Below are positions 15,285 through 46,897 of a stretch of 64,000 nt of DNA, piece by piece. Position 1 is the first letter of the stretch, and each line of letters starts with the position of its first letter. The notes below the pieces were generated by a model. It was given only the letters and a program-made list of their open reading frames with translations, did no database searches and had not been told where the DNA came from. Both the position numbers and the translations under genes were made by a program. The stretch lies in the NCBI GenBank assembly GCA_000004985.1, contig GG738906.1, one strand, 5' to 3'. This DNA is from Naegleria gruberi. Its lineage: Eukaryota.

Positions 15285-15577
15285 GACGATGAAATTTTTT
15301 TTTCAATTTAAATGTTGATAACAAGGTAAAGTTTTGCAACTTCGAAAAAGTTGATGATGATTGTTGTGCACATGAAATACTTTCTTATTTACATTGAAAA
15401 TTTTGGCTGTTATTTGTTTGGCAACATAGCCATGGCAGAGTGCTTGATGATATTGAAAGGAAATATTGTGCAACAAGACAAAAATAGGTTTGTAAACTTT
15501 TGTGTTGGGAAACAAAAAATTAACGACTTGTTTGATTGGTTGGGCTTGTTTGTGGCAGACACAAATCAAAAAAAAAT

Positions 15578-17081: not shown

Positions 17082-18154
17082 TTACTTTTTTTCCTTTTTC
17101 TTTTTTGCTTTCTTTTTAGGTTTGTTTTTTTGTATGTGTGCTTTTAGGTTGGAGACCATTTGAGTGGTTAGAATCTTGTAAGCTGCCTTATCAACACGTT
17201 CGTACAATCTTATCCTAATTAAATTTTCCTTGGTTTTGGCTAGCTCTGCAAACATTAGCACCGCATTAGAGTCAACTACAATGTAATTTAAATCAATATT
17301 TTGTAAAGCATTAAATGTGTTTTGAGTGATCGATTCACAAAACTTGGCAACAATGTCAGTCCTTAGAGGTGTTCCTTCTCCACACCCTGATAAATTAAGT
17401 TGTTGAAGTTTTTGAGATGATAACAATGCAGTTGCAATTGCTTCAAATCCCCTTTCTCCAAATGTATTTCCTTGTAATTCAAGATTTTGAAGAGAGGGAG
17501 ATTTGCTGATTGCCTCTGATGCAAGTGCTACAGCTCCTTCATCCTGAATTCCACAATAATTTAGAGATAATTTAGACAGTGAAGGGCTCCAAGCTATTCC
17601 GACTGCTAAAAGACAAGCTCCTTCATCTCCAATTTCATTATGATCCAAAATTAACGTTGTAAGAGTTTCATTGTTTTGTAAAGCACGTGATAGAGCACTA
17701 CAACCCTTGGAACTAACTCGATTGTCAATTAATTCCAATTCTTTAAGTTTTGGATGAGGTTGTAACCACTTTTTGAAATGATAAGCATTGCCATTTTCCA
17801 ACATACCTTTCCGATTAATTGTACAGTTTTATCATTCATATTGTTTCTCCAAAACGACATTTTTTCATATCCTGGCATATTTACATCTAAATTTTCCAAT
17901 AATATTTGTATTGCTTCTGTAGAACATTCTTCCGTAATAAGGAATGGAATGTTTAATGTTGGAGGACCTTCCTCCGATTTTGATAGACGATTTAGTTTTT
18001 GAACAATAGAAGGGAGGGGCACAAGACTTTTATCTTGGCAGGCCTTTTCGTAGGATTTCAAAAACTTTTTAATTGCTTTTCTATTATTTTCAATTTCATC
18101 TCCTTCCTTTGCTGATGATGATTTTTTGGCACTTGAGCTAGGTTTTGGAGGCAT
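17082..18154 (-). CDS. RNI-type leucine-rich-repeat protein with a Lys-rich C-terminal tail. Exons 17807..18154 and 17082..17768; proposed 38-nt intron 17769..17806 (GTATGT...AAAAAG).
   Basis: ORFs 17729..18154 and 17082..17804 overlap in different frames. A GTATGT donor sits exactly at a codon boundary after ...QLIGK, and the acceptor ttcaaaaag|tgg continues as WLQPHPKLKELELIDNRVSS. RNI-like repeats follow (LTTLILDHNEIGDEGA..., LSKLSLNYCGIQDEGA...). Alternative reading: two separate, overlapping genes. Confidence 0.5.
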
Positions 18155-27748: not shown

Positions 27749-30608
27749 CTAAACATGTGGTGATAAACTAATAGCATTCCAACCATATGGACTCTTTACA
27801 GGGCTATCTTCCAAACTTCCAGAGCCAACAGACATTCCCAAAATGCTACTATTATTTCTTCCACAGCTTCCTCCTGATTCTCTCCTTTTCTTAATATTAA
27901 TAGCTTTTGGAGGAGATCTTCCTCGTTGACCAATCATCATACCTGGATGAGAACCTTCATAGTATTCATCATCATCCAATTCAAATTGTTCCTCATCCCC
28001 ACTATCCAGGCTGCTATCATCATTATATTCTTCCTGTTCGTCTTCTGAGAGATCGAAAATTCCATTATCATCATCCATCATTTCATCCTCGTCATAAGAT
28101 TCTGGTCTTTTTTTCATCATGGCATGTAGTGGAGATTTTGATTGAGGAGAGTGTAGAGATTCAAAGAGAAAATTGTTTGCCTCCGAATTTCTGTGGTTAT
28201 TGGTTTTTGACATATTCCTCAATCTGTCCCATTCGTCCATCATACCAGAATTACCAGCAGATCCACAATAGAAATCTTGTCTTTGTGAATTGGAAGAAAA
28301 TTGTGAGTTAGTTCCAAAATCACTCGAATCATACCCAGTTGTTGGATTGATATTTGGATATTCCCATTTTTGATAGATTGGCAAAATATATTTTTCAGAT
28401 TTTCTTAACAAATATGGATCGAATGGGAAAAAGTTATTCTCAAGATAATTCACACCTCCATATCCACCACGAAGAGGAACAACAATGTTTTGGTTTTCCT
28501 CCAGAACATGATGGAAATCAAAGAGGTAGAAACGAGAAAAGGCATTAACAACTTCTTCAGCAACATCAGAAGCTACAATCTGTTGAAATGCACAATAGGT
28601 TTTGTTTGGAAATAATTTTCGTGTTGGGTAGGGAGAATGACATGTTGGAACCATTTGATTAACCAATCATTAACCAATTGGTACAGTCATTTGCAATACC
28701 GCAATTGGTTTATTCGAAGCAAGACACATCAAATCATTATGGTCGTAATGTTTGAATGTGATCGTGTAATAATAATATGTTTGACAAGAATTATTCACAA
28801 ATAAAAGCAATACCACCAATGGCGTTCGGTTGTTCATTGCATTCGTGAAAATTAATGTCAATTAAAAATTGATACAATAAATTTGAATTGTAACAATGTT
28901 AAATCCATTCCATTTAAAATTATTTTGAATTTAAGATAAAGTAAATCTTGGTTGGATAGATTGTCATACTTACCTTAAGAGGATTAAATTTAGAATAAAT
29001 AATACGTTTGATAGGACTTTGGGAGAAAAATTGTCTACCTTCTGCCATTAGTTGTTTGACATCCTTTCTAATAGGTGAGGTTTCACCTCCTTCCCCATCT
29101 TCTGGTTTGAGCAATTGTTGTATTTTGAAACATAACACATAGAAAACTCCTTGGCAAATAGAATAAAACAAACTATGAGTTTCTACATCTAAGTATTGTA
29201 AACTTTGCTCAAAAGTTATAATATACTTTTCTGACCAGGCTAATAATTGACCCAAAGTTCTTAAAACAATGGTATTAGTAACATATTTTGCTCTTGATAA
29301 AAGACCGGATAAATAAGCAGCACAACATTTTCTAACCTCAACATGAAGTTGACTGTTGAATATATTTCCAAGTAAAAAACTGATAAATCTTTCCATATAA
29401 TTAACGTGAAAACTGCAAACGTAAAACATTAAAAATTGAATAGAGTGAAGTTGATATTGGTTAAGTACAAAGCTTCTGAATAAAACCATCATGGAGTGGA
29501 ATATGGAATCAAGAAATTCATTTTTTCCCTTAATTTCGCTATTGCCACTTTCTAGATACTTGTTATTTTGTCTTGGTGGATGTAAATGTACAGGAGAAGA
29601 AGGTGGAGCATTGGCACGTTCATTGATATATTCAAATAGAATGGTAACAATGGAATCAAGTTTTTCAGCACAGTAAATACGCATCTCTTCAGCATTGGAT
29701 TCATCAAATTCAAAATCAAATACAGCGTTTTCTAGATGTTTAACATCTGATGCTTCATTATTCATATTTCCAATATGCTTATTGGTTTGTGATGAGAAGG
29801 TATCATTTTGTGAATTCATTGCAACAAGTTGGGCATCCATTTCAATTAGACTTTGTACAACCGAGGAGAAACAGAAGCTAGTAAGTGAGGGAATATATCT
29901 ATCCAAACTTAAAGCATTATCAACAAATGCTCTATGAATTGAAAGTGAGTGTGAGGCATGAGGATAAACCTGTCTAATTCTATCTTTAAGTTGAGTAATG
30001 AACAAGTGTTGGTTGGTAGCTTTTTTTTGTATTTTGTAGAGGAGATTATGTACATTTTGTTTTCTTGTTCTTTCGAGCGTTTCTATGAGTTCTGCTGTTA
30101 ATTTTAATCCACCATTATTTTCTTCAATTCTCTTCAGCTCGAAATCTGGTATCGGAAGGAAATGTTCAACAAGGCAGGAAATTATCATTTCGTGAATACT
30201 TGTAGCAGTAGTATTGTTATTTGTTGTTGTTATGAGAGTACTATTAGTAGACGAAGATGTGGTATAAAGAGCCAAACACAATGTATCGAAACTAATTTGT
30301 AAATCCTTGTTATTAGAACACATTACTTTTGTGCTAGTGGAGAGGATGGCATGAATTAAATCTTTACAATTTGAATATTGACTATTATTGAGGGATCTTG
30401 AATGTACAATTTCGTTGGTTATCCTTGAGAGTGCTTTGAAAGTGAGTACAAGTTGGAGAGGACTGAGTTGATGGAATTTTTGTACGACACTCACATATTT
30501 TCGTGGATCATTATTTTCAAATAACTCTCGTAGCGCTGTTGAAAAAGCTTGTTTAATTACATTAATTTGTTGTTCTTGTTGGAGTTGTTGTGGATTTTGT
30601 TGCATCAT
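27749..30608 (-). CDS. RRN3: RNA polymerase I transcription initiation factor RRN3/TIF-IA. Exons 28974..30608 and 27749..28579, with an unusually long 394-nt intron (28580..28973, GTAAGT...CAACAG).
   Basis: ORF 28920..30608 aligns by eye to RRN3 (YLSGLLSRAKYV~YIGSFLARAKFI, FYSICQGVFYVLCFKIQQLL~FYSACQAVFYTFVFRHKQLL, FNPLKV~LNPLKI). ORF 27749..28666 carries the RRN3 C-terminal block (VVNAFSRFYLF..., FFPFDPYLLRKSEKYILPIYQKWE~FFPFDPCVLKRSKKFIDPIYQVWE). A GTAAGT donor sits immediately after NPLK. The only in-frame AG that gives the conserved continuation NPLK|IVASD...VVNAF is caacag| at 28580/28581. Confidence 0.75.
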
Positions 30609-30631
30609 TTTTAAAGGGAAGGAGTGAGAGG

Positions 30632-30931
30632 TTATTTTGGCAATTTTTTTATTTCGTTAAATTGTTTGATGATGGCTTGTTTAGATTCAATGCCACAATT
30701 TAACTTGTGCATAATAAAAAACAATTCATTTCTTTTAAAAATTTGAAAACTTTGGAATTGCACATGCCTTGCTACAAAATGTTTTTCGAATATGATTTCA
30801 ATTTTAAATGAAGGACATATGATGTCGATACTTGAACCGCAATAATTCGCACAAAAGTCCACCATAAAAGCCTGGTTCAAGTTGATCCAGTTGAGCTCTT
30901 CAAAAAAAAGCCAGTACTTCATTCTATCCAC
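30632..30931 (-). CDS. Small ORF (99 aa) whose stop codon lies 24 nt upstream of the RRN3 start codon on the same strand. It may be a uORF/5'-leader ORF, a small gene, or spurious.
   Basis: ORF only; no motif. Position is in the 460-nt region between RRN3 and the ABCG gene. Confidence 0.2.
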   Translation of the reverse strand: MDRMKYWLFFEELNWINLNQAFMVDFCANYCGSSIDIICPSFKIEIIFEKHFVARHVQFQSFQIFKRNELFFIMHKLNCGIESKQAIIKQFNEIKKLPK

Positions 30932-30955
30932 AAACTTTGGTTTTTCTCATCAACT

Positions 30956-33110
30956 ATGGCCGAAACACAAGAAATACCACTAGAAATGATGAGTTATTGT
31001 CAATGTACATGCTGATCAGCATGGTCAACAAGAGGGATTTCACTTTAGAGAGGTTCCAAAAGTATTATTGGAATGGAAAAATTTGAGCTATGAAGTAAAA
31101 GTTAAAAAGTCACTTCCACCCTCTAAAACTACAACATCCAAAGAAAGAATAACCTTTCATTTAAAAAATTTATTTAAAAAAGTCCCAAAAACTATTCTTC
31201 ATTCAATGAGTGGATTTGTAAAGCCAGGTGAGGTATTAGCAATTATGGGACCATCTGGAGCTGTAAGTTTTTTTGGAAGGTTGACATTTTAATGACATTT
31301 GTTCGTTAAGGGAAAAACCTCACTCCTCAACATTCTCTCTCAAAGAGTTAAAGCTTCTGGAGGTGAAATTTTAGCCAATGGACAACATGTTGGAAAGGCA
31401 TTCAAAAGCATTAGTGCATTCGTTCAACAGGATGATGTACTTTTAGGTAATTTAACTGTAAGTGTCTAATTTTAATTATTGGAAAACAATAATGAAATAA
31501 GGTGAGAGAAACTTTGAGATATACAGCAATGCTTCGTTTAGGCAACGTTTCAATGAAGGAGAGAATGAAAAGAGTTGACAGTTTAATCCAAGAACTTGGT
31601 CTTTCTCGAGTTGCTGATACTCTGGTAGGTAGTCCAGGTTTGGTAAAGGGAATTTCTGGAGGTGAAAGAAAACGTCTGTGTATTGCTATTGAACTTCTTA
31701 CACAACCATCCGTATTATTTTTGGATGAGGTGAGAATAATTTAATAATTTCATTGAACGAGACATTAACAAAACCAGCCAACAACAGGCCTCGATGCAAA
31801 AACAAGTTTAAGTGTGATTAATACCATTAACAAACTAGCCCAGAATGGTAGAACAGTCGTATTGACTATTCATCAACCTAGATCAGATATTTTCCAATCA
31901 TTTGATAGATTGCTCCTATTAGCAAGAGGAAAAATTGCTTATTTTGGTAATGCTAAAAGTGTCATACCATACTTTTTAAAGCTTGGATATGATTGTCCAG
32001 AAGCATTCAACCCAGCTGACTTTTTTATGGATCTTGTAACAGAAAATCCTGCTCTAGTAGAAGAGGGAAAAACAACAAAAGTAGAACAAAATCAAAGAAT
32101 TGAAACAATACTTTCAAACTATTCTGAAAACTTTGAAGAGTTGGCCTCTGCAAAAAGAGATGGGGTCAATATGGAACACTTGACAAGAAAAAACAAGTAT
32201 ACATCGGGTTGGTTTTCTCAATTTTTTGTGGTTTTGATGAGATCTTTTCTCAATACCATAAGAAATAAGGCTGTTACAATGGCTAGATTATTTCAGCAGG
32301 TTTCAACTGCTTTCTTACTTGGCTTAATTTATTTGAGGCTGAAAAATGATCAGACTGGTGTTCAAGATAGGCTTGGTGTATTATTCTTTTCTGTTTCCAA
32401 TATGTTTTTTGGAAGTTTATCGAGCTCCCTAAATGTATTACTTGGAGACAAGCCTGTGTTTAATAGAGAGAGAGGTGCTAAACTGTATAGAGTTAGTAGT
32501 TGGTATGTTGCAAAGGTTATTGCAGACATCCCAAGTGTACTGTTTTTCCCTCTTCTTTTTGGTTGCATCTTATATTTTTGGATAGGGCTTAATGGAAGTA
32601 TTGATAGATTCTTAATGTTTCTATTGATTCAAGCGATTTTAGGCTTGACCGGGCAAGGTCTCGGTATTGCTATAGCGAGCATTTCACCAAACGCTTCTGT
32701 GGCATTTTCAATTATGCCAGTAATCAGTACCATTTTAATGTTATTTGGAGGGTTCTACTTGAATTTAGACAATGTACCAGTGTACTTTGTTTGGATTTAC
32801 TGGTAAGTTATCGAAATAGAACACATTTCATCCTTATCTATTCTAATTATTATTAACAAACAGGACTAGTATCTTTCATTTTGCATTTGAGGCATTTTGT
32901 ATTAATGAATTTACGTCCTCAACATTTGAATGCACTTCCTCAAGCTATTGTCCATTTCCAAATGGCGCAGCCGTGTTAGAAAATTTGGCAATGGATTCTT
33001 CAATGTCATCAACTTGGATTAACATTGGTTTATCATGTGCCCTTATTCTTGTTTATCATATTTTTGCTTATTTATGTTTGAGATTTTTCTCTAAACCGAG
33101 AGGTGGCTAA
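30956..33110 (+). CDS. ABCG-family (White/ABCG2-like) half-transporter, NBD then TMD. Exons: a short uncertain 5' exon (ATG at 30956); body starting at 31033, 31035 or 31053 and running to 31262; 31311..31457; 31502..31729; 31778..32802; 32864..33110. Introns: 48 nt (31263..31310), 44 nt (31458..31501), 48 nt (31730..31777), 61 nt (32803..32863).
   Basis: LEWKNLSYEV..., Walker A GPSGA|GKTSLLN (split by an intron), Q-loop, ABC signature ISGGERKRL, Walker B LLFLDE|PTTGLDA (split by an intron), H-loop TIHQPRS. Six TM helices follow, and the ABCG-type C-terminal extracellular Cys loop (...NEFTSSTFECTSSSYCPF...) sits after the last intron. The main ORF frame has no ATG (the track's M is a TTG). 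An ATG at 30956 can be spliced in by a 31-49-nt intron, but the exact junction is unresolved. Confidence 0.8.
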
Positions 33111-33167
33111 TTTTTACAATAATTTTAATTTATAGTTTACAAATATTTAATAAATAAGTGGATTCAA

Positions 33168-34340
33168 TTACATATAAAAGTGAGAAAAATCCTCATCGTC
33201 ATCATCTAAATCTCTTGGAACTCGGTGATGGTCTGGATTTGGTTGACCACCTCCTCTACCTTGACCTCCAAAAGGTGCATTAGGATAGATTGGATCAAAT
33301 CTAGCACCTGGAATAAAGCCTGGGTTAGGTCTTCTATTATTATTTGAACCTGGAAAGAATAATGGATTGTTTGGACCAACCTGGCTGCCTCCACCAAATG
33401 GAAAACCAGATCCCCTTCCTCCAAAAGGTTGTGGTAAATGACCCAAACCAGGATACAAATCTTCATCACCAATACGATAAGGTCTACCACCAATAGGTGG
33501 TTGAATATATCCTCCTCTTCTTGGAGGGCCAATTCGTAGTGGATCAAAATCGTCATCATCTTCATCATACATACTTCTACTTGGTGGAATGTATTGTCTT
33601 GGTTGACGATCTTCTAATAGAGATGAGGAAACGTTAGTCGTAGTTGCATTATTGGATGATTGTGTGGATGACATGCTAATTGTTTCAAATCCCTCTTTTG
33701 GAACCAGTTTGTTTTGAATTTGAGTTTTAAATTGATATTCCAAGTCTTGTAAATTCTTAAAAACAGAAATAAAATCAATATTATCGTTACTTTGGTTGAT
33801 AACTTCATTAAACTTTTCTCTGTCAATAAACTCAAAAAGATTATTAAACTCCAACTGATAGACTTGTTCTTCTTCTTGTTGTTTGGCATATTGTGACATG
33901 TTCAAGTTTGAATTCTCATTGATATCAATATTTGGGAAAAGTAAAATGGTTGAAAATACTAATAATTTAGTTTGTCCCATCATTAATACTTTTAGAGTAA
34001 AATTAAATGTTCTTTGTGTGTGTTTGTACTTGAGAGAGAACATTTCCACGTTTGAATCAAAGTTGTTCGGAGGAAGAATTTGTCCCTCTGGTAATTCTAC
34101 ACATTGATCAGTTTCATTCAATCCAACACATCTAAATCCATGTTTTAACATTAAAAAGTGTAATACTAATACAAGCCAAGTTTGAGGTTTTGTTTTTTTT
34201 AATTTGTTTTGTAATTCTATATTATTAGTTAGTTGTGGATCGGTTAAATATTCTAAAATATTTGATCGGATCAAAGAACTAGATGATGAAGAATTGTCTT
34301 CTCCGCTGCTGCTGGCGTGGTTATCTGATGATGAAGACAT
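33168..34340 (-). CDS. PSMF1: Proteasome inhibitor PI31-like protein, 390 aa, single exon.
   Basis: N-terminal FP-type domain. C-terminal Pro/Gly-rich region with ...DDDFDPLRIGPPRRGGYIQPP...PGARFDPIYPNAPFGG... (compare PI31 ...GARFDPFGP...). A C-terminal hydrophobic-Tyr-X ending (FYM) resembles the HbYX proteasome-docking motif. Confidence 0.6.
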   Translation of the reverse strand: MSSSSDNHASSSGEDNSSSSSSLIRSNILEYLTDPQLTNNIELQNKLKKTKPQTWLVLVLHFLMLKHGFRCVGLNETDQCVELPEGQILPPNNFDSNVEMFSLKYKHTQRTFNFTLKVLMMGQTKLLVFSTILLFPNIDINENSNLNMSQYAKQQEEEQVYQLEFNNLFEFIDREKFNEVINQSNDNIDFISVFKNLQDLEYQFKTQIQNKLVPKEGFETISMSSTQSSNNATTTNVSSSLLEDRQPRQYIPPSRSMYDEDDDDFDPLRIGPPRRGGYIQPPIGGRPYRIGDEDLYPGLGHLPQPFGGRGSGFPFGGGSQVGPNNPLFFPGSNNNRRPNPGFIPGARFDPIYPNAPFGGQGRGGGQPNPDHHRVPRDLDDDDEDFSHFYM

Positions 34341-34549: not shown

Positions 34550-36769
34550 ATGGCACGGTTACCAAACACTCCGATCATTGTTGATGAATTTAAATACATT
34601 CCCGGATGTTTCATTTATCTATTAACCCATCTTCATACGGATCACACTGGTGGTCTTACTCCAAGTTGGAATAATGGAATAATATTTTGTAGTGAAATAA
34701 CCAAAAGATTACTCTTGAAAAAGTTTCAATTACAAGAACCAGAGAGAATAATTGCTTTAGAGGAGGGACCAACCTATTACATTCCTCTTGTACCACCCAG
34801 TCCAATGCAGGATCACACAGACACGAATTTAAATATTCATCATGATGTTAATATTTGGAGGGATCCATCCTATTGGGTCAAGTTTAACAATAATCCTTCT
34901 TCCTCTCAAAACAATAGCAGTAACTTGTCACAATCAATGTCAGTTGGTATGAATCAAGCCTTGACTGTTTATGATAAGGATACATCTTATATGCAAGTCA
35001 ATATCATTGATGCTAATCACTGTCCAGGAAGTATTATGTTTTTATTGGAAGGCTATTTTGGAAATGTTTTATTTACAGGAGATTTCAGATATGATGCAAG
35101 AATTCTGCAAGCTCCTTGCTTTAGAGACAAGAAAATTGACCACCTCTACCTTGATGACACATTTCTGGATAAAATGTATGATTTTCCAACGAGACAAGAG
35201 GCTGGTAAACAAGTAATAAGTGTTATCAAGTCACTACCAGATACAACTCATATTCTGATTGCGGTTGACCATTTGGGTAAAGAGGAGTTAATGTTGGCTT
35301 TAGCAACTACTTTTCAAACTTTAATAGTTGTGCCCGAAGAAAGATATGAACTATTAGAATGTATGAATGATATTATCCCAATAGATTTATTTACCTGTGA
35401 TCCTAAACAAGGTAGAATTTTTGTAAAATCAAAGAAGGAAGTCAATATGCGGTCAATAATTGAGCACAAAAGAATTTTTGGAGCAACTACTGTTGGTATT
35501 ATTCCATCTGGATGGTCTTCTGCCCAACTCAAAGATCCAACCTCACAATTAATTTATAGAGTACCCTACTCACTCCATTCATCCTATTCGGAAATAATAG
35601 AATTTGTATCCACATTGAAGCCAAAAAATGTGTACAGTACTTCAAAAGATGAAAATTTAGAATTGAGAGATCAAGTTGGAAAATATTGTGATTATAATAC
35701 ACCCCTAAAACCTGTAATTGTTCCACGTTCTGTACTCTCACACATGGAAAGGTCATCCAATATGATTGATCATAAGAAAATTACAAGTGTTTCAAATATT
35801 TCCCCATCATCATCAATAACTAAAGTGTACAGAAAAAGAAAATCATACCCTCCTTCCCATAAGAAGTTTCTAAAAATTATTCCCCAAAATACACAAACCC
35901 AAAATACCAGTATTATTGACCTAACAGACACTGTGAATACATCCCAAATCAATTTAGAAGATACCCAAGATTTACTCTCCCATATGTACAATAGATCAGA
36001 AACAAGCTTTTCATTGCCATCCACCCCAAATAAGAAGAAGGAGTCCCAAAGAATTGTGGGATCATTAGAAGTTTTAGATGTTTTGGACAATTTTGTAAAT
36101 ATTTCTCCTATACCTAGTCCAAAAATTATTAAGCATTCCCCTCACAGAAAACAACTTGCCTCTAAACATTCAATAGAGCAAGTGTTGGTGGACAATAATG
36201 GAATACCAATTCTGGTACCAAAAGATACAAACTTGGAATCTGATGAAATATATAACTTATCACTTTCTCCCCACAGTGGGGATGAAAATGCTTTTGATGA
36301 AAGTGAGATTTTGAATAATATTGATTTAGAACAATCACCAGAGGAAAGTATTATTATTAAAACTGCTAACAATCAGCAGTTGCCATCAAAGAAAAGAAAG
36401 CATGTTGAAACAAGACAAATTTTAGAATTAAGCGATGATGACGAAATAGTACTCAAACCAGCAACCAACAAGACAACATCTCATTATGAATCCAATACAA
36501 AAAAGTTGAAACTTGCGACAAATCTTTCACAGATAGAATTCTCACTAGAGGCTAATCCTGTTGTTGCTCAAGACGAAATTGACAAGAACGAGCCCTATCC
36601 ACAAGGTTACTCACAAATTTCTTGGGATGATTCAGATGAAGATGTAAAATTAATACCACACCAGAAAAACAAAACAAGCCAAACACTCCATAAAACTACA
36701 AAACCAACCAAACAATCCAGTTCCCTCAGTTTGACAGACATTTTCTTTCCTAAAGCGACAAGGCATTAA
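34550..36769 (+). CDS. SNM1/PSO2-family DNA interstrand cross-link repair nuclease (metallo-beta-lactamase + beta-CASP), 739 aa, single exon.
   Basis: MBL motif HLHTDHTGGL, a second His/Asp cluster ...IDANHCPGSIMFL..., and a beta-CASP region. Long Ser/Asn-rich C-terminal tail. Confidence 0.8.
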   Translation: MARLPNTPIIVDEFKYIPGCFIYLLTHLHTDHTGGLTPSWNNGIIFCSEITKRLLLKKFQLQEPERIIALEEGPTYYIPLVPPSPMQDHTDTNLNIHHDVNIWRDPSYWVKFNNNPSSSQNNSSNLSQSMSVGMNQALTVYDKDTSYMQVNIIDANHCPGSIMFLLEGYFGNVLFTGDFRYDARILQAPCFRDKKIDHLYLDDTFLDKMYDFPTRQEAGKQVISVIKSLPDTTHILIAVDHLGKEELMLALATTFQTLIVVPEERYELLECMNDIIPIDLFTCDPKQGRIFVKSKKEVNMRSIIEHKRIFGATTVGIIPSGWSSAQLKDPTSQLIYRVPYSLHSSYSEIIEFVSTLKPKNVYSTSKDENLELRDQVGKYCDYNTPLKPVIVPRSVLSHMERSSNMIDHKKITSVSNISPSSSITKVYRKRKSYPPSHKKFLKIIPQNTQTQNTSIIDLTDTVNTSQINLEDTQDLLSHMYNRSETSFSLPSTPNKKKESQRIVGSLEVLDVLDNFVNISPIPSPKIIKHSPHRKQLASKHSIEQVLVDNNGIPILVPKDTNLESDEIYNLSLSPHSGDENAFDESEILNNIDLEQSPEESIIIKTANNQQLPSKKRKHVETRQILELSDDDEIVLKPATNKTTSHYESNTKKLKLATNLSQIEFSLEANPVVAQDEIDKNEPYPQGYSQISWDDSDEDVKLIPHQKNKTSQTLHKTTKPTKQSSSLSLTDIFFPKATRH

Positions 36770-36803: not shown

Positions 36804-39800
36804 TTATAAATCTTCATTTAGATATGGATTCACAACGCTCTTTTTTTCATTCTTTTTAAAGGTCTCTGTTTGTTTAAATCTCCAATAGACTCCCATCAAC
36901 TGTTCGGTTGTTTCTACTTTGAGAATTGTGATAAGGTCTTCCAGTTCTTGTGCAGTTATAGCCTCATCTTGCTCCTTTCTAATGTGAAACATTCTCATCG
37001 TTTTCCTGCTGATAGAGAGAGGAAAAGGACTGTACTTTTTAAGGAATCTTTTGTAAATCTTCCTCACATGTTGGGATCTCTCAAACATACTGTGATGGAA
37101 ATTACCTTCAAAGGAATAAATGTCAATCAATTGACGATATAAATATACTAGTGGAAGGGTAAATTCTTTCATTGCATAAAATTCAAACAATGGACCCAAT
37201 ACCGGATCATTTACAACATCTAATAATTCACTGTCAGAAGTATTTTGTGTTTCAGATCCTCTAGTGCAACAAAATGTGTGTTTTCTAGCTGTCATACAAG
37301 CTACAAATCCTCCATAAACCAAGAGAATTAATAGCTTAACCATAAAAAGTAAAATAATTGGAGCAATTTCAAGCATGTGTATGTGAGCTTGTCTGCTGTA
37401 GAGTTGGAAAGCAAGAGAACCCTCATTAAAAGTATTGCTATACAGATTTGGATACATTACGTTCATTACATCATAACCTTCTGCTAGAACAAGTAAACTA
37501 GCCATGAACATATAAGCTATCCATTCAATTTTGAAAAGGAAAACATCTCCATTAAAAGTACCTTCAAATTTCAAAAAGTTGTCAGTCTTTACATCATTGA
37601 AATTTAACATTTTCTTCATGAATATTTCCATAAAAATAATAATAGAGAAGCTAACTATTACACTCAATGTAATTAAGCAAGCCCTTATTAAACTAAATAC
37701 TGTAAATACTAATTTAAAGTTAAGAACTGAAACTGAAGCCAGTACTAGTAATATGATATATGTAACCAGTTGGGCAGCATAAAGAGTCAAACATGGCATA
37801 ACTAAATAGGATCTGGAAGTGAATTTAACATATCTACGAATTGAATATTTTTCATCTTTCTCTTGATACTTTTTCATCAAGAATTGGAATCTTTCCTTGT
37901 GGTAGTATTGCCAAATATTCAACATGTAGAGAACTAGCATGGCACAATATAATGGATCGATAACAGTTCTCAAGGCTCCATCTATTGTATCCATGAAAGG
38001 TATTTCAACACCTGTCAAGAAAATATTCATAATCATTCCATCTCTAGTCAAATTGATAAGTGCTTCGAGTATCAGGACTAGAATTCCAAAAAATGGAATA
38101 AAACCTCTAAACTTTAGCGAAATATTGTGTGGTGTCCTTATACTAAGTAGAAAAATAGCTTGTCCAACAGAGAAAATTAAAATTAAAATACAGGATGTAA
38201 TATCTCCCCAAACCTTATTGGTAAAATCTTGGATAAGTTCAACATCTGATGTGTTTGCCTTCAATACAGCAAAAAGGGTGGTATGATTACAAGAGCAATA
38301 AATTCTATTTAGTCCAGGATTGGAATCATCAGTAATCAAACTATCCTTTGGCTTGGAATTACCGAGGAATGAATAAGATGCCACAGTGGTGCATCCCTCC
38401 TTTGACCATTCTTCTGTAGTTTCATTCCAAAAATGGCATCCACCCCCCATCCACAAGTAAGTAGGTAGGTAGACACTTTGATCAGCAAAGAATACCATCT
38501 CTATTGGTGACTTTAAATTTCTCAATTTCAATGATTGTTGATTGTAGAGTAATTCTACACTTATCATTACGTTTCCAAGTATTTTGGAATTGCCTTCTGT
38601 ATTTTTAAAAGTTACAATCTTGAACCCAACAAATTGATCTGTAATGTTCAAAGGAAGTGGAGATATGATGGATGCATCCAACGAGTTGGCCAATGTGCTT
38701 CTTTCTGTATTAGAATGGATAATCTCATCAGAATTCAACTCAATATCAGAAATGAATAGACTTTGTTGTCTAATTTCAGGTGGAAGTTGGATAAGAAGTA
38801 AATTATTGTTCACTTTCCATTCTCTAGTGTCGTTGGAGTAATCAACAGAAACAGAGGCCCCTTCTCCAAATCCAGCACCAATCAGACTACTCAACAAATC
38901 TCTCTTGTAGCTTATTTCTACGTTATTGTTTGTAATGGTTACAGCAGTTGAAGGCGCCGACTCCTCTAAAAGTCTAATAGACAACTGGTGAATCCATTTT
39001 TGGCAAAAACCAGCAAGAACTTGTGATTTAACAATTATTGTGTTGGCGTTTGCTGTTGACAGTAACGAGTCAAGAATAGTAAGGAAAGAATTAGAATATG
39101 TAGAGAATAGAGATGAAAATTCTACTTTAGGATTGTTGACTTCACTAGTTGGTCTCATATCTATGACATCTATTGTTCTGGTGATGAATAAATTTCGTTC
39201 CTTCAAAAAATTTACAAGCAATGGGTGTAAAAGAGAGTCAACTATGAGCGATATAGATCTAGATGATAGATGTGATGGTTTTTTGGTGAGAGAGGAAATT
39301 AGTTGAATTAAATTAATATCCATTCTGAATAGATCAAATAATGAAAGTGCAAAAGTGTTAGAACTATTAAGTGTTTTCAGTTGTTCTCGAGCCGAGATGG
39401 CTGCACTAGCTATTTGTTCTCTAATTATTCCTTCTTCATCAGAATTATTAAAGGCTGCATACTCATTTAGAGTAGTGCACAATTTGTCCAAGTCTAGATA
39501 AATATCTTGAATAATTTTTGGTTCGAAAACTGTTACATTATTTTTCTTCATTAAATCTGTGATGTTTGGCAAAATGTCAATGACTTGCTGTTGAATGTTT
39601 TGAATTTTGGATTTGGTCGCCTTGAGATAATTGTGATCAGTGCTAGTGTTGTTTAGTTTGATATTTCTAGTTCCAATCCAATATCTAAAGTTGTATGATT
39701 CCTTTGATGGATCATTAATTTGTAAAAATATATGGATATCAACTTGATTTGTGTGAGAGTAGGGTAACCAAGTTGTTAACTTGTTCATATGTGTGGAAGT

Positions 39801-41546
39801 GGTCAAGAGCTTCATTGTATCACCTTCAATAGAGTAATAAATCTCATATATTGCAGAGACGCTGGAAGAAGTAATACCAGGAAATTCAATAACAAATTTG
39901 TCTAATAATGGCCTATTAAATCCATCAAGTAATGGATAAATAGAAATTGAACTGCTATCTATAATACTATCTTGTTGCTTTGAAGCAACCTTTCTCCTAA
40001 ATGTTGAATTAACAATGTATATTTGATTGATAATAGCCTTAACGGAGAACTCATAAATATTAGGACTGGAAGAGTATGCCTTCTCATTGCTCAAAAGAGT
40101 TCTAGGTTCTAAATAGAGTACTGAATTAGAGGAAGTCTTTACAATGGTTGGTGTTTCTTGTTGATCTTCACGTCCTAAATAACTCACAGTCCACTCCCAT
40201 TTCAATGAGGTTACACCAGAAAGTAAAACTCCACCCGGAAAAATTTCACCACTCAATACTATTGCCTTTGTTGGATCCATGAATGTGGTGTCGATACTTG
40301 GGAAAATTCTAACTGCCCAATATTCATTGGCATTTAATGTTCGAAGTATGATAAAAGTGGTGTCAGATCTTGAACCAACACTATAATCAAGGCAAATCAC
40401 ATAGGTATTAAAATATTCAAGATTTTCTGTAGGAATATTATAATTTGATTCAAATGTGTTTACAGGTGTTTCAAATGTACAAGGTAGTAATACTGATGAG
40501 GAAATGTCAGATTTCAATTGAGATTTTCCACTCAGCTTGTAGGAATGGCCTTTTATGTAAAAGCATGACCAAATAAAAGACTCTTTAACAAAATCCACTA
40601 GTGGTAAGTTTTCAGGATCATAACTTGTTGAAAAAAGTTGTAAGGACCCATCTGATTGAATTATACTACCAAAATCAGATTCTTTTGGATATAAATTGGA
40701 ACGAGTATTATAAGAGTAAATTGGTAAATACTCTTCATACAATCCTCCATTGATTTGAGCTATAACATTGGATTTTGGCAATCTTTCTACACTAAATGAG
40801 AAGGAAATATACTCCATAGTAATGTTGCTGTTAGAGGAGTTGTATTCACCAATAAAATCAAAATTATAAGGGATGGAAGGCAGTAAATCATTAGTATTGA
40901 CTTTAAGTAAAAGTCCTCGAGTAATAGAATGCGTTAAAGGGTTGGATGTTAATAAACTCAATAAAGAATTGCCATTGCTAATCTTCCAAAAGTAGTTTCG
41001 TTCATTATTTGAAAATCCTGTAGCAGAAGCATTAAAAATTATCTCCTCATGGCTTGAAACTGAAACTAATTGTTGAGAGTGTATTGCCACATTGTTCATG
41101 TAAATTGTCAAATTGTTCAAGCTTGACTGTTCGTTTGCGTTCACAAAAAATCTGCCAGTTGTCACTGTATCCTCCAAAGCATGATAGTAATGGTGGTAAA
41201 TATTGGAAATGTTTTTTTGTTGAACACCAAAAGATTTGAAAAAGTAAGAATTCACTTGTATATCATGAATGTAAGAACTTTTAACTGCGTTTGATACACA
41301 AAGCATGGTTGATAATATCAAGACCAAATGAATCCAAGAAACAATCATGTGCCATATGCCCTTTCCGAATTGCATACTACTATGTATTCTTTTAGGAATT
41401 GATGAAGACATTTTTAAATTCGTAATATTTAATAGTGATTTCTTGTTAAATAATTCTTGTTTAGTCATTTGTTGTTGATGATGTGAGTTCGGAGGACTTT
41501 TTACATAGTAATTTTTTTGCAAATCTTTGGGTGTTTGGTTTTGCAT
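36804..41546 (-). CDS. Adhesion-GPCR-like receptor, 1580 aa, single exon: signal peptide, about 1000-aa N-glycan-rich ectodomain, canonical GAIN/GPS motif, 7 TM helices, cytoplasmic tail.
   Basis: Signal peptide ...IWHMIVSWIHLVLILSTMLCVSNA. GGGCHFWNETTEEWSKEGC...(35 aa)...IYCSCNHTTLFAVL is encoded at about 38262..38460, immediately followed by seven hydrophobic helices (ITSCILILIFSVGQAIFLLSI ... IAPIILLFMVKLLILLVYGGFVACM). The start codon could be the first ATG (41546) or a downstream Met preceding the signal peptide. Confidence 0.75.
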   Translation of the reverse strand: MQNQTPKDLQKNYYVKSPPNSHHQQQMTKQELFNKKSLLNITNLKMSSSIPKRIHSSMQFGKGIWHMIVSWIHLVLILSTMLCVSNAVKSSYIHDIQVNSYFFKSFGVQQKNISNIYHHYYHALEDTVTTGRFFVNANEQSSLNNLTIYMNNVAIHSQQLVSVSSHEEIIFNASATGFSNNERNYFWKISNGNSLLSLLTSNPLTHSITRGLLLKVNTNDLLPSIPYNFDFIGEYNSSNSNITMEYISFSFSVERLPKSNVIAQINGGLYEEYLPIYSYNTRSNLYPKESDFGSIIQSDGSLQLFSTSYDPENLPLVDFVKESFIWSCFYIKGHSYKLSGKSQLKSDISSSVLLPCTFETPVNTFESNYNIPTENLEYFNTYVICLDYSVGSRSDTTFIILRTLNANEYWAVRIFPSIDTTFMDPTKAIVLSGEIFPGGVLLSGVTSLKWEWTVSYLGREDQQETPTIVKTSSNSVLYLEPRTLLSNEKAYSSSPNIYEFSVKAIINQIYIVNSTFRRKVASKQQDSIIDSSSISIYPLLDGFNRPLLDKFVIEFPGITSSSVSAIYEIYYSIEGDTMKLLTTSTHMNKLTTWLPYSHTNQVDIHIFLQINDPSKESYNFRYWIGTRNIKLNNTSTDHNYLKATKSKIQNIQQQVIDILPNITDLMKKNNVTVFEPKIIQDIYLDLDKLCTTLNEYAAFNNSDEEGIIREQIASAAISAREQLKTLNSSNTFALSLFDLFRMDINLIQLISSLTKKPSHLSSRSISLIVDSLLHPLLVNFLKERNLFITRTIDVIDMRPTSEVNNPKVEFSSLFSTYSNSFLTILDSLLSTANANTIIVKSQVLAGFCQKWIHQLSIRLLEESAPSTAVTITNNNVEISYKRDLLSSLIGAGFGEGASVSVDYSNDTREWKVNNNLLLIQLPPEIRQQSLFISDIELNSDEIIHSNTERSTLANSLDASIISPLPLNITDQFVGFKIVTFKNTEGNSKILGNVMISVELLYNQQSLKLRNLKSPIEMVFFADQSVYLPTYLWMGGGCHFWNETTEEWSKEGCTTVASYSFLGNSKPKDSLITDDSNPGLNRIYCSCNHTTLFAVLKANTSDVELIQDFTNKVWGDITSCILILIFSVGQAIFLLSIRTPHNISLKFRGFIPFFGILVLILEALINLTRDGMIMNIFLTGVEIPFMDTIDGALRTVIDPLYCAMLVLYMLNIWQYYHKERFQFLMKKYQEKDEKYSIRRYVKFTSRSYLVMPCLTLYAAQLVTYIILLVLASVSVLNFKLVFTVFSLIRACLITLSVIVSFSIIIFMEIFMKKMLNFNDVKTDNFLKFEGTFNGDVFLFKIEWIAYMFMASLLVLAEGYDVMNVMYPNLYSNTFNEGSLAFQLYSRQAHIHMLEIAPIILLFMVKLLILLVYGGFVACMTARKHTFCCTRGSETQNTSDSELLDVVNDPVLGPLFEFYAMKEFTLPLVYLYRQLIDIYSFEGNFHHSMFERSQHVRKIYKRFLKKYSPFPLSISRKTMRMFHIRKEQDEAITAQELEDLITILKVETTEQLMGVYWRFKQTETFKKNEKKSVVNPYLNEDL

Positions 41547-43268: not shown

Positions 43269-43532
43269 ATGAATCCACCAACAGAACAAATCGAATCTGT
43301 ATTGCAACCACATCAAATGGTGTATCCTTACAGAAAACGAGCAACACAAACCATCAACACATCTACCATCAACAACAAACAACAAACATCTCCTGAGGAA
43401 GACATTGTTCCTCCCTTATTAATGAATTTCATACCACCTCCTTGTCCAGTTGATAATATTACAAATCCTTCCTTAGCAGCTTTGAAAAGAAATTGTTATT
43501 GGAGAAGGAGATTGTTCTTGCACAATGGATAA
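43269..43532 (+). CDS. Short ORF (87 aa) overlapping the next ORF in the +1 frame. It may be the N-terminal part of the downstream gene (frameshift or sequence error) or an independent small ORF.
   Basis: ATG with an A-rich context at 43269. The downstream frame opens 45 nt before this ORF's stop. No splice-site pair reconciles the two frames (all candidate junctions create stop codons). Confidence 0.25.
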   Translation: MNPPTEQIESVLQPHQMVYPYRKRATQTINTSTINNKQQTSPEEDIVPPLLMNFIPPPCPVDNITNPSLAALKRNCYWRRRLFLHNG

Positions 43533-44562
43533 AGAAGGAACAACTTATACTGTTCGAACAGTAGATAAGCATGAACGATCGTTAAACAGTAGTCATGATA
43601 ACGCAACTAGTATAACTCGAAGCTCAATTCCGCCCCAAACAACCGCCACCACACAACCACAAATTCACTCTTCAACAACAACATCACCAACAATTTCTCC
43701 AACCTTTGCAACCCTTTATCGAAGTGCCTCCTCATATCGTGCGCATGTTTCAGGCACACCTCAATACGTACAAACATCACCTGCCCAAGTGGTTAGGTCT
43801 TCATCATTTGATAGCCATTTGCCAATTTTCTCACACATTCCCTCCACCAATATCACACATGCAAACACTTTATCCTCTCCTTCTCTGTCACCTAATCATG
43901 CTTATTTTCTTAGCTCAACACCAACCCAATTTCTCTCCACTAGTATTCCAACAATTCAGTATTCATCATCACCAAATTATTGCCCCATTCCAAATACAAC
44001 CTTCTCTCATGTTCCTCTTTTTGTTTCTACACAGCCTGTGACTGTAGTTCCCTCAAATATTCAAAAACCAAACATTTCAAAGAAAAAGGTAAAGACACCT
44101 TCTTCCCCAGTGGCTTCATCTTCATCATCTTCCAGTCAATCATCGCAACATTTACAAATAGTAAGCCAGGAGCATCCTTCTGCTCAAGAAAGAAAACGAT
44201 CAATCTCACCAGCATTTGGAGAGCAAGTCAAGTTAACCCCCCCTGAAAAGAAAACAAAAACCATCGAAATTCCAAAGTCTACACAAGCTTTGAAAATTCC
44301 AAGAGCAGAAATAGCAGAAGCAAAACAACATTCTAAAGACTCACTAAAGGGGAAAAAAACCATTGTGGCTAGATTTCTTTGCCCAAACAATTGCGAAATT
44401 CAAGGCACCCCAATTGTTTCACTAGATTCCTCATCTCACAGTGTAATTATTCAAGGTGTCAGTTTAGTTTATAATCCTCCAGAGTTTGCTCAGTTGGATA
44501 AAACAGTGGTAGTGAAAGGAGAGAACGGATCTCTAGAAGTAAGATTGCCACTTTTAGAGTAG
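43525..44562 (+). CDS. Hypothetical Ser/Thr/Pro-rich protein (345 aa) with a conserved-looking C-terminal globular segment (...TIVARFLCPNNCEIQGTPIVSLDSSSHSVIIQGVSLVYNPPEFAQLDKTVVVKGENGSLEVRLPLLE).
   Basis: Long ORF; low-complexity N-terminal two-thirds. Family not identified. Confidence 0.5.
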   Translation: MDKEGTTYTVRTVDKHERSLNSSHDNATSITRSSIPPQTTATTQPQIHSSTTTSPTISPTFATLYRSASSYRAHVSGTPQYVQTSPAQVVRSSSFDSHLPIFSHIPSTNITHANTLSSPSLSPNHAYFLSSTPTQFLSTSIPTIQYSSSPNYCPIPNTTFSHVPLFVSTQPVTVVPSNIQKPNISKKKVKTPSSPVASSSSSSSQSSQHLQIVSQEHPSAQERKRSISPAFGEQVKLTPPEKKTKTIEIPKSTQALKIPRAEIAEAKQHSKDSLKGKKTIVARFLCPNNCEIQGTPIVSLDSSSHSVIIQGVSLVYNPPEFAQLDKTVVVKGENGSLEVRLPLLE

Positions 44563-44603
44563 AATGTTATAGAATAATAACATGAACCATTGTACAGTAA
44601 TAT

Positions 44604-46897
44604 TTATTGAGATAAAGATCCTCTTACAATTTCTACCAAAGATGTCAATAATTGGAAAACAACAGTAGTTTGAGGATTGATTAAAATCTTAAACAGAGCA
44701 TTTCTTAAATTTTGGCTATCAGCTTGCTCATTATCTGAGGCAATGTCATTAACATCAACTACCTTATTAATAAGTTCCATTTGTTGTGCTAGGAAAGAAG
44801 AAATTAGAGGATGAGATTTGATAGGTTCTTCCATTAATTTTGCCAATAAGTCTAATACCTTCTTTTCATTCTCATCAATGACTTGTTCATTCTTAATAAG
44901 TTCACCCTTTTCGTAGAGTTGAGAAAACTTTCTACCCTGTGCATCTGTGTAGTGAGTTTCCCCTTCAATTTGTCCGTCAACCCAATATCCCTCAAGAGAT
45001 TCTTTACTGTCCAAAAGAACAAATCTTCCTCTCCCATCAAATTTACCTCTTTTCCAATAACCAACATATGTGTATCCAGATGATGAAAAAGTTCCATAAC
45101 CATCAGAGAAATCACCAAGCCATTCACCTTCATAAACATCACCATTAGGATAGGATTGTTTGCCAAAACCTTCTCTCTTATCATTGTTCCATTCCCCATC
45201 ATAATGGGACTGATTTGCAGCAAATTTCATTTTACCCCTTCCAGATTTGATTGAATTTATAAAGTGGCCTTCGTAGACATCTCCTGAGGCATATTTATAA
45301 ATACCTTTACCTGTTATGGAATCTTTTGAGAATTCACCTTCGTATTTGGATCCATCTGTAAACACCATCTTACCTGCTCCATCTCTCATATCATCAATAA
45401 AATAGCCTTCATATACACCTCCATCGTTGTACATTAAAATACCAAAACCGTGCTTTTGTCCATTTGTGTTTGTGTCACCTTTATAAAATGGTTGGTTGCA
45501 ATCCATATTAAGATTATCACCAAGTCCACTACCAATCGAAATATTATGTGGTAATGTGGCTATATCAATTGAACTTTCAGATTCAACCGATGTTATGGAA
45601 GACAGATTATTCTCTACTTCTAAAACCATCTTAACAGACACTTGCCTTTTGTGATACACTCGGCTTAATGTAGCAGTATTATTAACAACAGTAGGGGTTG
45701 TACTGGCACCAATACTATTCAAATCTTCATCCTCAGTTTGATCATTGCATGTTTGAGAGGTTGCTGTATTTTCATCATTTGTCTGAATGTCTGAAACACC
45801 ATCCTCAAATATTTGAGGAGCATTGACTATTAATGACTTGATGACGTTGGTTGCATTGGAAATATCTCTAATAGTTAGCATGGGATCTTGATCTTTCAGA
45901 TATAATATATTAGGTTGAATTACAATAGCAATATTTTCAGGACTCATTAAATTCTAAAATTCAAACAAATTGAAATAACAATAAATAAAATATTAACAAA
46001 CATTAATAATAAAATAAAAATTAGTTCAATATTTTTGAAATTATTACATACCACTTGTTGTTTTTTCGAAACAGTATTTAAAAATAGGCAAAGTTTTTTT
46101 AGCAGTACATAATTTGCTCTGGGCAAAAGACCACAAATTTGTTGTAATAATTGACATTTACGACTAGTTTCCAATTCCTCAAGTTCTGAAGGTGATAAAT
46201 TATTTGTATCATTATTTGATATTGAAGTGGTATTAATCATTTTTGAAGTTGCAAGAAATGATTCGTATAGTTTGTTTGTTAATAGTGGTTCTCTCAGTTT
46301 CCTCAAATAAACCTTAATGAGAGAGGCTGCTAAATGTACATCTGCATATTCATTAAAATCAACTGTAGCCATTTTAGCTCCACCACTTTTAAATAATTCA
46401 TCAATTTCTTTCATTACCTTTTCTTCTCTACTCTTCGATGTAGAATGTCTGAAAATACCTTGAGTTTCCAAGCCATGTTTCTCCAAATAGTCCATGGCAT
46501 GAAATAGGAATTGGGGAATGTGTTCAGGTGAATTGGAAGGAAATTCATGGCCCCAAATGGTATCCTGATTCAAAATTTTAGAAAGTCCACCATTGATACC
46601 AGTACTACTACTACCCTTTGAATTTTCACCACCATTCAATATTTGTGATGATGAGGATGTTGAAGAGGAACGAGTGGAATTCTTTTTTCTTTTACTTCTT
46701 GTGGTGGTGGTGGAACCGTTATTATTACTACTACATGAGGATTCATCATCATCATGTTGCTGCTGTTGCTTGTCATGTTCATTAATCATTCCTTGTAACT
46801 GATCGTAGAGTGCAGTGGATTTTTGACCGTCAGTGTTTTTGAAGAGTGCCACAGATGCTCTGGGCTCTAATTTGATACGGGAAAATAGTCTTCTCAT
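44604..46897 (-). CDS. RhoGAP-domain protein fused to C-terminal MORN repeats (about 730 aa). Exons 46052..46897 and 44604..45953; 98-nt intron 45954..46051 (GTATGT...TTTTAG).
   Basis: ORF 45947..46897 carries a RhoGAP domain (…GIFRHSTSKSREEKVMKEIDE…, LLPRANYVLLKKLCLFLNTVSKK) and ends in intron read-through. A GTATGT donor follows KQQV. The acceptor ttttag|AATTTAATG continues as NLMSPENIAIVIQPNIL (RhoGAP motif N.M...NLA.VFGP.LL) into ORF 44604..45947, which holds at least 7 MORN repeats (YEGYFIDDMRDGAGKMVFTDGSKYEGEF...). Confidence 0.7.

Follow-up and report, generated by a model that had tools for sequence, protein, structure and literature searches.

The 64,000-nucleotide stretch of Naegleria gruberi DNA analyzed here (contig GG738906.1; hereafter the window) is AT-rich, with ~33% GC, and carries on its minus strand, at 36804..41546, an unbroken open reading frame (ORF) of 1580 codons plus stop. 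We conclude, with a probability of about 0.8, that its product is an N. gruberi member of a known heterolobosean family of GPS-bearing proteins with seven transmembrane helices and an RGS domain (7TM-RGS proteins), and not a new kind of receptor. The GPS-7TM-RGS architecture is already known, having been published for N. fowleri (Bosch et al., J Biol Chem 2022, PMC9283941). In the papers searched we did not find the assignment of a full GAIN domain, a REJ-like module, an invariant H-T-T tripeptide, or the noncanonical RGS contact residues of the query clade described below, and a literature search aimed at a GAIN domain in Naegleria yielded no paper. From its N-terminus onward, the protein consists of a leader, a variable stretch of short length, a predicted REJ-like module, the GAIN domain and its GPS, the 7TM domain, an RGS-homology domain, and a 15-residue tail. 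The features on which the argument rests are the following (TM, transmembrane helix; an arrow marks a cleavage point):

41283..41360, minus strand: hydrophobic signal peptide or signal anchor, residues 63-88, GIWHMIVSWIHLVLILSTMLCVSNAV (hydropathy; basic residues before it, an SNA↓V cleavage-like site after it)
39705..40652, minus strand: predicted REJ-like module, residues ~299-614 (ortholog consensus against Pfam REJ PF02010)
38952..39629, minus strand: predicted GAIN subdomain A, a helical bundle, residues 640-865 (AlphaFold2 [AF2] helices with a predicted local distance difference test [pLDDT] score of 76-92; the ADGRG6 alignment reaches into it; Foldseek)
38259..38951, minus strand: predicted GAIN subdomain B including the GPS, residues 866-1096 (Pfam GPS and family profile; AF2 beta strands of low confidence)
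38259..38438, minus strand: GPS proper, residues 1037-1096 (Pfam GPS PF01825)
38277..38285, minus strand: H1088-T1089-T1090, at the position of the canonical H-L↓T tripeptide, followed by a Stachel-like LFAVLK
37293..38210, minus strand: predicted seven-helix TM domain, residues ~1113-1418 (hydropathy, loop charges, AF2 helices)
37693..37766, minus strand: "intron" of the deposited gene model, 74 nt, GT..AG, coding for conserved TM4 residues 1261-1285
36852..37226, minus strand: divergent RGS-homology domain, residues 1441-1565 (Pfam RGS, hhalign, Foldseek)
36807..36851, minus strand: C-terminal tail of 15 residues, 1566-1580, ending in VVNPYLNEDL, 100% identical to N. lovaniensis

Homologs and Family Membership

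Homologs were collected with an exhaustive HMMER search. A word-index protein search returned only a truncated self-match for the full query, and nothing for residues 1000-1580 or for the family alignment, a failure that we attribute to the low-complexity, AT-rich character of the query. Three paralogs from N. gruberi and N. lovaniensis (P0005, P0006, and P0007) have the order GPS-7TM-RGS. Pfam RGS is above its cutoff in all three, as is Pfam GPS in P0006 and P0007, the GPS of P0005 being recognized by motif and alignment. Proteins of this kind are numerous in the pathogenic congener. In N. fowleri, 28 7TM RGS proteins have been described, some of which have GPS motifs along with EGF or lectin ectodomains, and the isolated RGS domains of Nf 7TM RGS2-4 are GTPase-activating proteins (GAPs) for several Nf G-alpha subunits (PMC9283941). 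Other 7TM-RGS proteins are known in plants, in Trichomonas, and in some fungi and holozoans/opisthokonts (PMC3971589).

The closest homologs of the query come from N. lovaniensis (XP_044555734, here P0002; gene at 8001-17285 of locus L001) and from an environmental contig in ENA (P0003). The genes flanking the N. lovaniensis homolog are not syntenic with the window, and orthology therefore rests on best-hit similarity. No paralog of the receptor was found within the 64-kb window itself.

The GAIN Domain and an Invariant H-T-T Tripeptide

We regard the GAIN assignment as established by sequence comparison and weakly supported by predicted structure. Pfam GPS (PF01825) matches the query with 27 bits (cutoff 22.5; E 6e-6) and the family consensus with 36 bits. 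To cover the whole domain, a profile combining the query (residues 640-1112) with two long ortholog-like proteins and the three paralogs was compared with all sequences of the Protein Data Bank (PDB). All 16 matches listed at E <= 10 are GAIN chains of adhesion GPCRs (aGPCRs; GPCR, G protein-coupled receptor), 11 of them at E <= 0.002. The best are ADGRG1 (E 1.2e-9), ADGRG3 (1.9e-8), and ADGRG6 (1.8e-5), the last spanning about 240 columns and extending into the helical subdomain, and further matches include ADGRF1, ADGRL3, CELSR1, and BAI3. On the structural side, the low-confidence AF2 model has about 11 strands after a helical subdomain, the pattern expected of a GAIN domain, and the three top Foldseek matches of a GAIN-only model are the BAI3/BAI2 GAIN crystal structures, with low TM-scores. 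The initial annotation of this DNA, made from the letters alone, had called a GPS with H-T-T in place of H-L-T and had proposed a profile search for GPS and GAIN as a check. The results agree with that call, and the peptide that it quoted, CHFWNETTEEWSKEGC...NRIYCSCNHTTLFAVLK, is indeed encoded at 38259..38438 on the minus strand.

It had also been suggested that the Thr at P1 might leave the GAIN domain deficient in cleavage. The Thr itself stands, but the idea of a degenerate, cleavage-dead site is weakened by the conservation of the tripeptide. The columns C-x-C-(N/D)-H-T-T-x-F are invariant in 6/6 GPS-bearing family members (three from N. gruberi, two from N. lovaniensis, and one from an environmental contig), at identities down to about 20%, so that H(P2), T(P1), T(P1'), and F(P3') are the same in each. 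Given this invariance among such divergent members, the alignment indicates that Thr at P1 is a lineage or family signature under selection and not the lesion of one gene.

Whether such a site might be cleaved can be considered against known cases. In latrophilin-1 the P1 Leu occupies a hydrophobic pocket, and the substitution L837A impairs cleavage (PMC3321182). Atypical GPS sites can cleave, for example S-L-S in GPR125 (PMC9539791), and P1 is not always Leu, since the solved ADGRG6 chain reads H-F-T in our PDB sequence match. The invariant general base His and nucleophile Thr would be more easily explained by retained catalysis, although they may also reflect the structural strand to which both belong, and we put the odds that H-T↓T is competent for cleavage at roughly even. 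Downstream of the tripeptide, the TLFAVLK of the query can be set against the tethered-agonist core TxFAVLM: F+3 and L+6 are kept and M+7 is K, and these same residues are needed by the GAIN fold. The paralogs have TSFATFI and TQFATFV at this position. As a separate observation, N1087-H-T1089 (38277-38288 region, minus strand) forms an N-glycosylation sequon, which the canonical N-H-L would not. The sequon Asn of C-N-H-T-T lies three residues before the putative scissile bond, and the C-D-H-T-T paralogs are without the sequon. The invariant H-T-T provides a natural test of whether GAIN autoproteolysis needs a P1 leucine.

A Divergent Cytoplasmic RGS-Homology Domain

The homology of the cytoplasmic domain to RGS is secure, as judged from profile comparison and from the predicted fold. 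Pfam RGS scores 24.4 bits in the ortholog P0003 (cutoff 23.9), 30-38 bits in the paralogs, and 51 bits in the family consensus. When a profile of the query clade was aligned by hhalign with the RGS-box profile of the paralogs, the probability was 98.5% (E 1.5e-15), and the paralog profile in turn finds RGS12, 17, 7, 10, 2, 4, and others in the PDB, with E down to 1e-9. Moreover, the RGS region, the one part of the large AF2 model predicted with fair confidence, matches RGS1/4/8/16/17/18 in Foldseek with a probability of 1.0 and TM-scores up to 0.75, the best fit being RGS16 (TM-score 0.75; root-mean-square deviation 2.7 A over 123 residues). This RGS-like domain was absent from the description of the receptor in the initial annotation.

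A number of observations weigh against our interpretation. By itself the query scores only 13.3 bits with Pfam RGS (E 0.12; residues 1444-1543), below the cutoff. A profile restricted to the query clade found no RGS in the PDB and a single-sequence PDB search with the query gave no match, which is why the paralog profile is needed as a bridge. The AF2 models, built on shallow alignments, are poor, with a pLDDT of 49 for residues 600-1580 (8 sequences) and of 54 for residues 640-1112 (6 sequences). Their usable parts are GAIN subdomain A and the RGS box, whereas GAIN subdomain B and the 7TM domain are called from sequence. The residues expected to contact G-alpha also differ. In the query clade EFSxENL is replaced by EF(T/S/Q/K)L(P/Q)(L/Y) and DTFSRF by G(V/I/M)YWRF (DVLVRF in Willaertia), and in place of the EVN Asn the query, like RGS17, has Ser. 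These replacements are conserved within the clade. Chained alignments place T-L-P-L, Ser, and G-V-Y-W-R-F of the query at the positions of the switch-I pocket, which in the RGS4-Gi-alpha-1 structure is lined by S85/E87/N88, N128, and D163/S164/R167. Because these canonical contact motifs are replaced, GAP competence of the query domain appears doubtful, and the domain may be a G-alpha binder that lacks GAP activity, or may have some other binding partner.

Identity to N. lovaniensis rises toward the cytoplasmic end, from 46% in the ectodomain through 60% in GAIN-B, 72% in the GPS, and 74% in the 7TM domain to 84% in the RGS-like domain and 100% in the tail, which argues for the intracellular module as the functional core. 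The tail, the most conserved part of the protein, may be a sorting or docking motif. Its sequence, ...KNEKKSVVNPYLNEDL, is identical in N. gruberi and N. lovaniensis, and P0003 differs from it by one residue (KNEKRSVVNPYLNEDL).

The Ectodomain and the Leader

The profile matches of the orthologs lead us to regard the ectodomain next to the membrane as probably REJ-like, resembling that of polycystin-1 (PC1) and the REJ proteins, and not as a new ligand-binding fold. The consensus of three orthologs reaches 38.5 bits against Pfam REJ (PF02010; cutoff 25), with E 7e-10, and the match spans positions 107-399 of the 452 in the profile. The ectodomain segment of P0003 alone reaches 23.8 bits (E 2e-5), just under the cutoff, and the query alone gives no match. 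The module includes the motif L-x-L-x-S-T-S-x-D-P-E ... F-x-W-x-C, and the ectodomain shared with the homologs (query residues ~167-640, the part that is 42-46% identical) has repeated F/Y-x-W ... L-x-(I/L) ... Y-x-F patterns. The initial annotation had recognized none of the usual modules here and had proposed a novel ligand-binding region. Neither statement appears to hold for the conserved part, and residues ~89-298 are the only ones left without a domain assignment. The region had further been described as dense in N-x-S/T sequons. The query has 16 of these, no more than the 16.6 +/- 3.6 obtained when the same residues are shuffled, so that their density follows from an N/S/T-rich composition, and we have discarded it as a mark of the ectodomain.

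The closest homologs are considerably longer (P0002, 3094 aa; P0003, 3045 aa). Between the leader and the shared part they have about 1450 extra ectodomain residues, absent from the N. gruberi protein, in which weak RCC1-like propeller and EGF/teneurin-like matches are found. This block could represent a lineage-specific loss or gain, or the homologs could be other than strict orthologs. In the paralog P0005 (N. gruberi XP_002669798), at least 14 ephrin-receptor-like/NCD3G cysteine-rich repeats are combined with GPS-7TM-RGS. Evidently, ectodomains have been shuffled freely in this family on a constant GAIN-7TM-RGS core.

An N-terminal signal peptide had also been proposed. The hydrophobic segment exists (residues 63-88, ...LCVSNA↓V), but its position is not N-terminal, as it begins 62 aa past the first ATG of the ORF (41546), 17 aa past the annotated start M46 (41411), and 5 aa past M58 (41375). 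Nothing else in the N-terminal region is conserved in the N. lovaniensis ortholog, residues 1-56 included. Given its position and the lack of conservation before it, the segment would be either a signal anchor or, if translation begins at a later ATG, a signal peptide. With M58 (41375) as the start, the signal peptide would be of the classical kind.

The Seven-Helix Domain

Seven hydropathy peaks follow the GPS in the query, as they do in the paralogs P0005 and P0007, and the AF2 model of the query has seven long helices there, in agreement with the helix count of the initial annotation. The loops predicted to face the cytoplasm hold 19 K+R, against 4 in the outside loops, which fits an N-out/C-in topology. 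T1090 sits 22 residues before TM1, and the first intracellular loop has 10 residues. At E <= 10 neither 7tm_2 nor any other Pfam GPCR family matched the query, the six members, or the family consensus, and the family 7TM profile matched none of the solved GPCRs among the PDB sequences. This negative is meaningful because the same consensus approach lifts GPS to 36, RGS to 51, and REJ to 38.5 bits. At the level of profiles, the 7TM part is thus not detectably 7tm_2 and is of a type unassigned to a known GPCR family. The earlier label of an adhesion-GPCR-like receptor is accordingly retained for the ectodomain and dropped for the 7TM domain, where even the family profile and consensus fail to support it.

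The Deposited Gene Model and Alternative Explanations

Residues 46-1260 of the query are 100% identical to an N. gruberi "predicted protein" of 1228 aa (P0001), from which we recognize the window as N. gruberi nuclear DNA. The deposited model diverges from the ORF after Leu1260, where it splices out 37693..37766, and it stops 13 residues on (FNKGLLNYIECNS, then stop), leaving a protein without a complete TM4, TM5-7, and the RGS-like domain. Were this model right, the gene would specify a 1228-aa REJ-GAIN protein with about 3.5 TM helices, and the downstream frame would be a relic or nonfunctional. GT..AG boundaries are present and the model is held by NCBI, UniProt, and EukProt, yet 74 nt is not a multiple of three, and removing them shifts the frame and cuts through TM4. 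Homologs from N. lovaniensis, an ENA environmental contig, and Willaertia magna are colinear with the ORF across 37693..37766 to the last residue. The 25 "intron" codons and the next 295 are 74-100% identical to N. lovaniensis and 48% to Willaertia, and the N. lovaniensis gene is annotated as one exon of 9285 nt. At the local base composition, stops should come ~14 codons apart, and the probability that these 320 codons stay open is about 3e-11; in the five other frames of the region the longest open run is 118 codons. For the whole ORF, the corresponding probability from base composition is about 9e-53. The conserved TM4, the colinear homologs, the downstream identity, and the single-exon N. 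lovaniensis gene lead us to reject the truncated model as highly improbable: 37693..37766 is coding, the public gene model is wrong, and the single-exon reading of an uninterrupted 1580-aa ORF, already put forward in the initial annotation, is right. The public model of the paralog P0006 (N. gruberi XP_002671458) has six hydrophobic segments and an alignment gap at TM3/TM4, which suggests another mis-predicted intron in an N. gruberi 7TM-RGS gene. Surveys of GPCR and RGS repertoires would overlook or misclassify the gene studied here, since its public model ends inside TM4.

For the full-length protein, two known receptor types come into question in place of a 7TM-RGS protein. The query could be a bona fide class B2 adhesion GPCR, with a tethered agonist in the GAIN domain, the 7TM bundle acting as a guanine nucleotide exchange factor (GEF), and H-T-T left uncleaved. 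Its GAIN domain is homologous to those of aGPCRs, TLFAVLK resembles the tethered-agonist consensus (PMC9539791), the GPS ends up about 22 residues away from TM1, and the effect of L837A in latrophilin-1 (PMC3321182) would be in line with an uncleaved site. We nevertheless consider this unlikely, as the 7TM domain has no 7tm_2 similarity, an RGS-homology domain stands at the C-terminus, and all the relatives are 7TM-RGS proteins. Furthermore, the invariance of H-T-T across the paralogs is unexpected for a decayed site, and the strand after the GPS is also structural in the GAIN fold, so that its conservation is no proof of an agonist role. In an alternative scenario, the REJ and GAIN ectodomain would be joined to a membrane domain of the channel-associated kind, as in a protein of the PC1/PKDREJ type. 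The pairing of REJ with GAIN/GPS is typical of PC1, PKDREJ, and the sea-urchin REJ proteins, and in the query a predicted REJ-like module immediately precedes the GAIN/GPS. PC1 is also linked to G proteins, its tail binding RGS7 (PMC9672506). The membrane domain, however, has seven helices and not eleven, no PLAT or PKD-channel Pfam match was found at E <= 1, and the first intracellular loop, with its 10 residues, is too short for PLAT. We have therefore rejected this possibility, which appears barely credible.

A Possible Mode of Action

As a member of the 7TM-RGS family, the receptor most likely works in the manner of AtRGS1 and of the 7TM RGS proteins of N. fowleri, as a GAP under regulation or a module that binds G-alpha, and not as a GEF-type GPCR. 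Given the RGS tail, the action expected on the G protein (GAP) would be opposite to that of a GPCR (GEF). In such a scheme the REJ and GAIN ectodomain would sense an extracellular ligand or a mechanical pull, and the GAIN domain would pass the signal, with or without cleavage, to the 7TM bundle, a possible route across the bundle being the Stachel-like strand TLFAVL after the GPS. The bundle would then alter how available the RGS-homology domain is to GTP-bound G-alpha, or how it lies relative to the latter. The outcome would be tuned G-alpha signaling, some N. fowleri G-alpha subunits being self-activating. While the architecture and the homologies have been shown above, the direction of signaling, the partner among the G-alpha subunits, competence as a GAP, and cleavage at the GPS are inferred.

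A bolder scenario, which we hold to be rather doubtful, is that the REJ-GAIN-7TM-RGS arrangement of Heterolobosea is the relic of an ancient mechanosensory module predating the split of aGPCRs and polycystins, with an H-T↓T site that is noncanonical yet competent in catalysis. The GAIN domain would release or expose a tethered strand, which would switch the unclassified 7TM bundle and so control the fused RGS-homology domain, and the latter, being without the classical GAP contacts, would act as a G-alpha effector or scaffold. The linkage of GAIN and 7TM has been placed in stem holozoans (PMC12716839). If the scenario were true, this linkage would move toward the last eukaryotic common ancestor, or would have arisen twice.

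Neighboring Genes

The receptor gene is surrounded by ordinary housekeeping and signaling genes (28920-34340 and 43525-46897), none of them related to it. Immediately downstream, at 34550-36769 on the plus strand, lies a convergent gene for a DNA-repair metallo-beta-lactamase of the SNM1/Artemis type (Pfam DRMBL, E 6e-13), whose stop codon is 34 bp from that of the receptor gene. The ORF at 43525-44562 has no Pfam match. The remaining neighbors are:

28920-30608: RRN3
31814-32806: ABC-2 transporter fragment
33168-34340: PI31 proteasome regulator
44604-45947: MORN-repeat protein
45947-46897: RhoGAP

Comparison with Known Systems

The nearest counterparts of the N. gruberi receptor are the GPS-bearing 7TM RGS proteins of N. 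fowleri, a species of the same genus, with which it shares the order of its parts, from a large ectodomain through the GPS and seven TM helices to an RGS domain at the C-terminus (PMC9283941). The family is expanded in the genus of a pathogen whose G-protein signaling is under consideration as a drug target (PMC9283941). Yet the ectodomains described in N. fowleri are EGF-like or lectin, whereas the query has a predicted REJ-like module, and the paper on that species mentions a GPS motif alone, and neither a full GAIN domain nor H-T-T (PMC9283941). The RGS box of the query also differs in its divergent G-alpha contact motifs, the GAP activity referred to above being that of Nf 7TM RGS2-4. AtRGS1, for its part, is unlike the query in having almost no ectodomain and no known GAIN/GPS or REJ. 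In layout, AtRGS1 and other 7TM-RGS proteins nonetheless resemble the query, with seven TM helices fused to a cytoplasmic RGS box as a receptor-GAP acting on G-alpha (PMC3971589).

With adhesion GPCRs such as ADGRG1/GPR56, ADGRG3, ADGRG6, and ADGRL3, the query has in common the GAIN domain and, in its GPS, the Cys/Trp landmarks as well as His at P2 and Thr at P1', along with a Stachel-like strand and a GPS about 22 residues before TM1. It departs from them in a 7TM domain that is not detectably 7tm_2, in Thr at P1 in place of Leu/Ile/Phe, and in the C-terminal RGS box. PC1, PKDREJ, and the sea-urchin REJ proteins have REJ followed by GAIN/GPS, an order that the predicted REJ-like module would give the query too, as well as a link to G proteins and RGS through the binding of RGS7 by the PC1 tail (PMC9672506). 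In the polycystin-1 family, however, the membrane part consists of 11 TM helices with PLAT and a TRP-like channel, against 7 in the query, and RGS is recruited there, whereas it is fused to the receptor here. A full GAIN domain directly before a 7TM domain in a discoban, outside Holozoa, bears on the question of when the coupling of GAIN and 7TM arose, and in the N. gruberi receptor this junction is paired with a predicted module of the REJ-like kind known from polycystin-1 and with an RGS box, as in AtRGS1.

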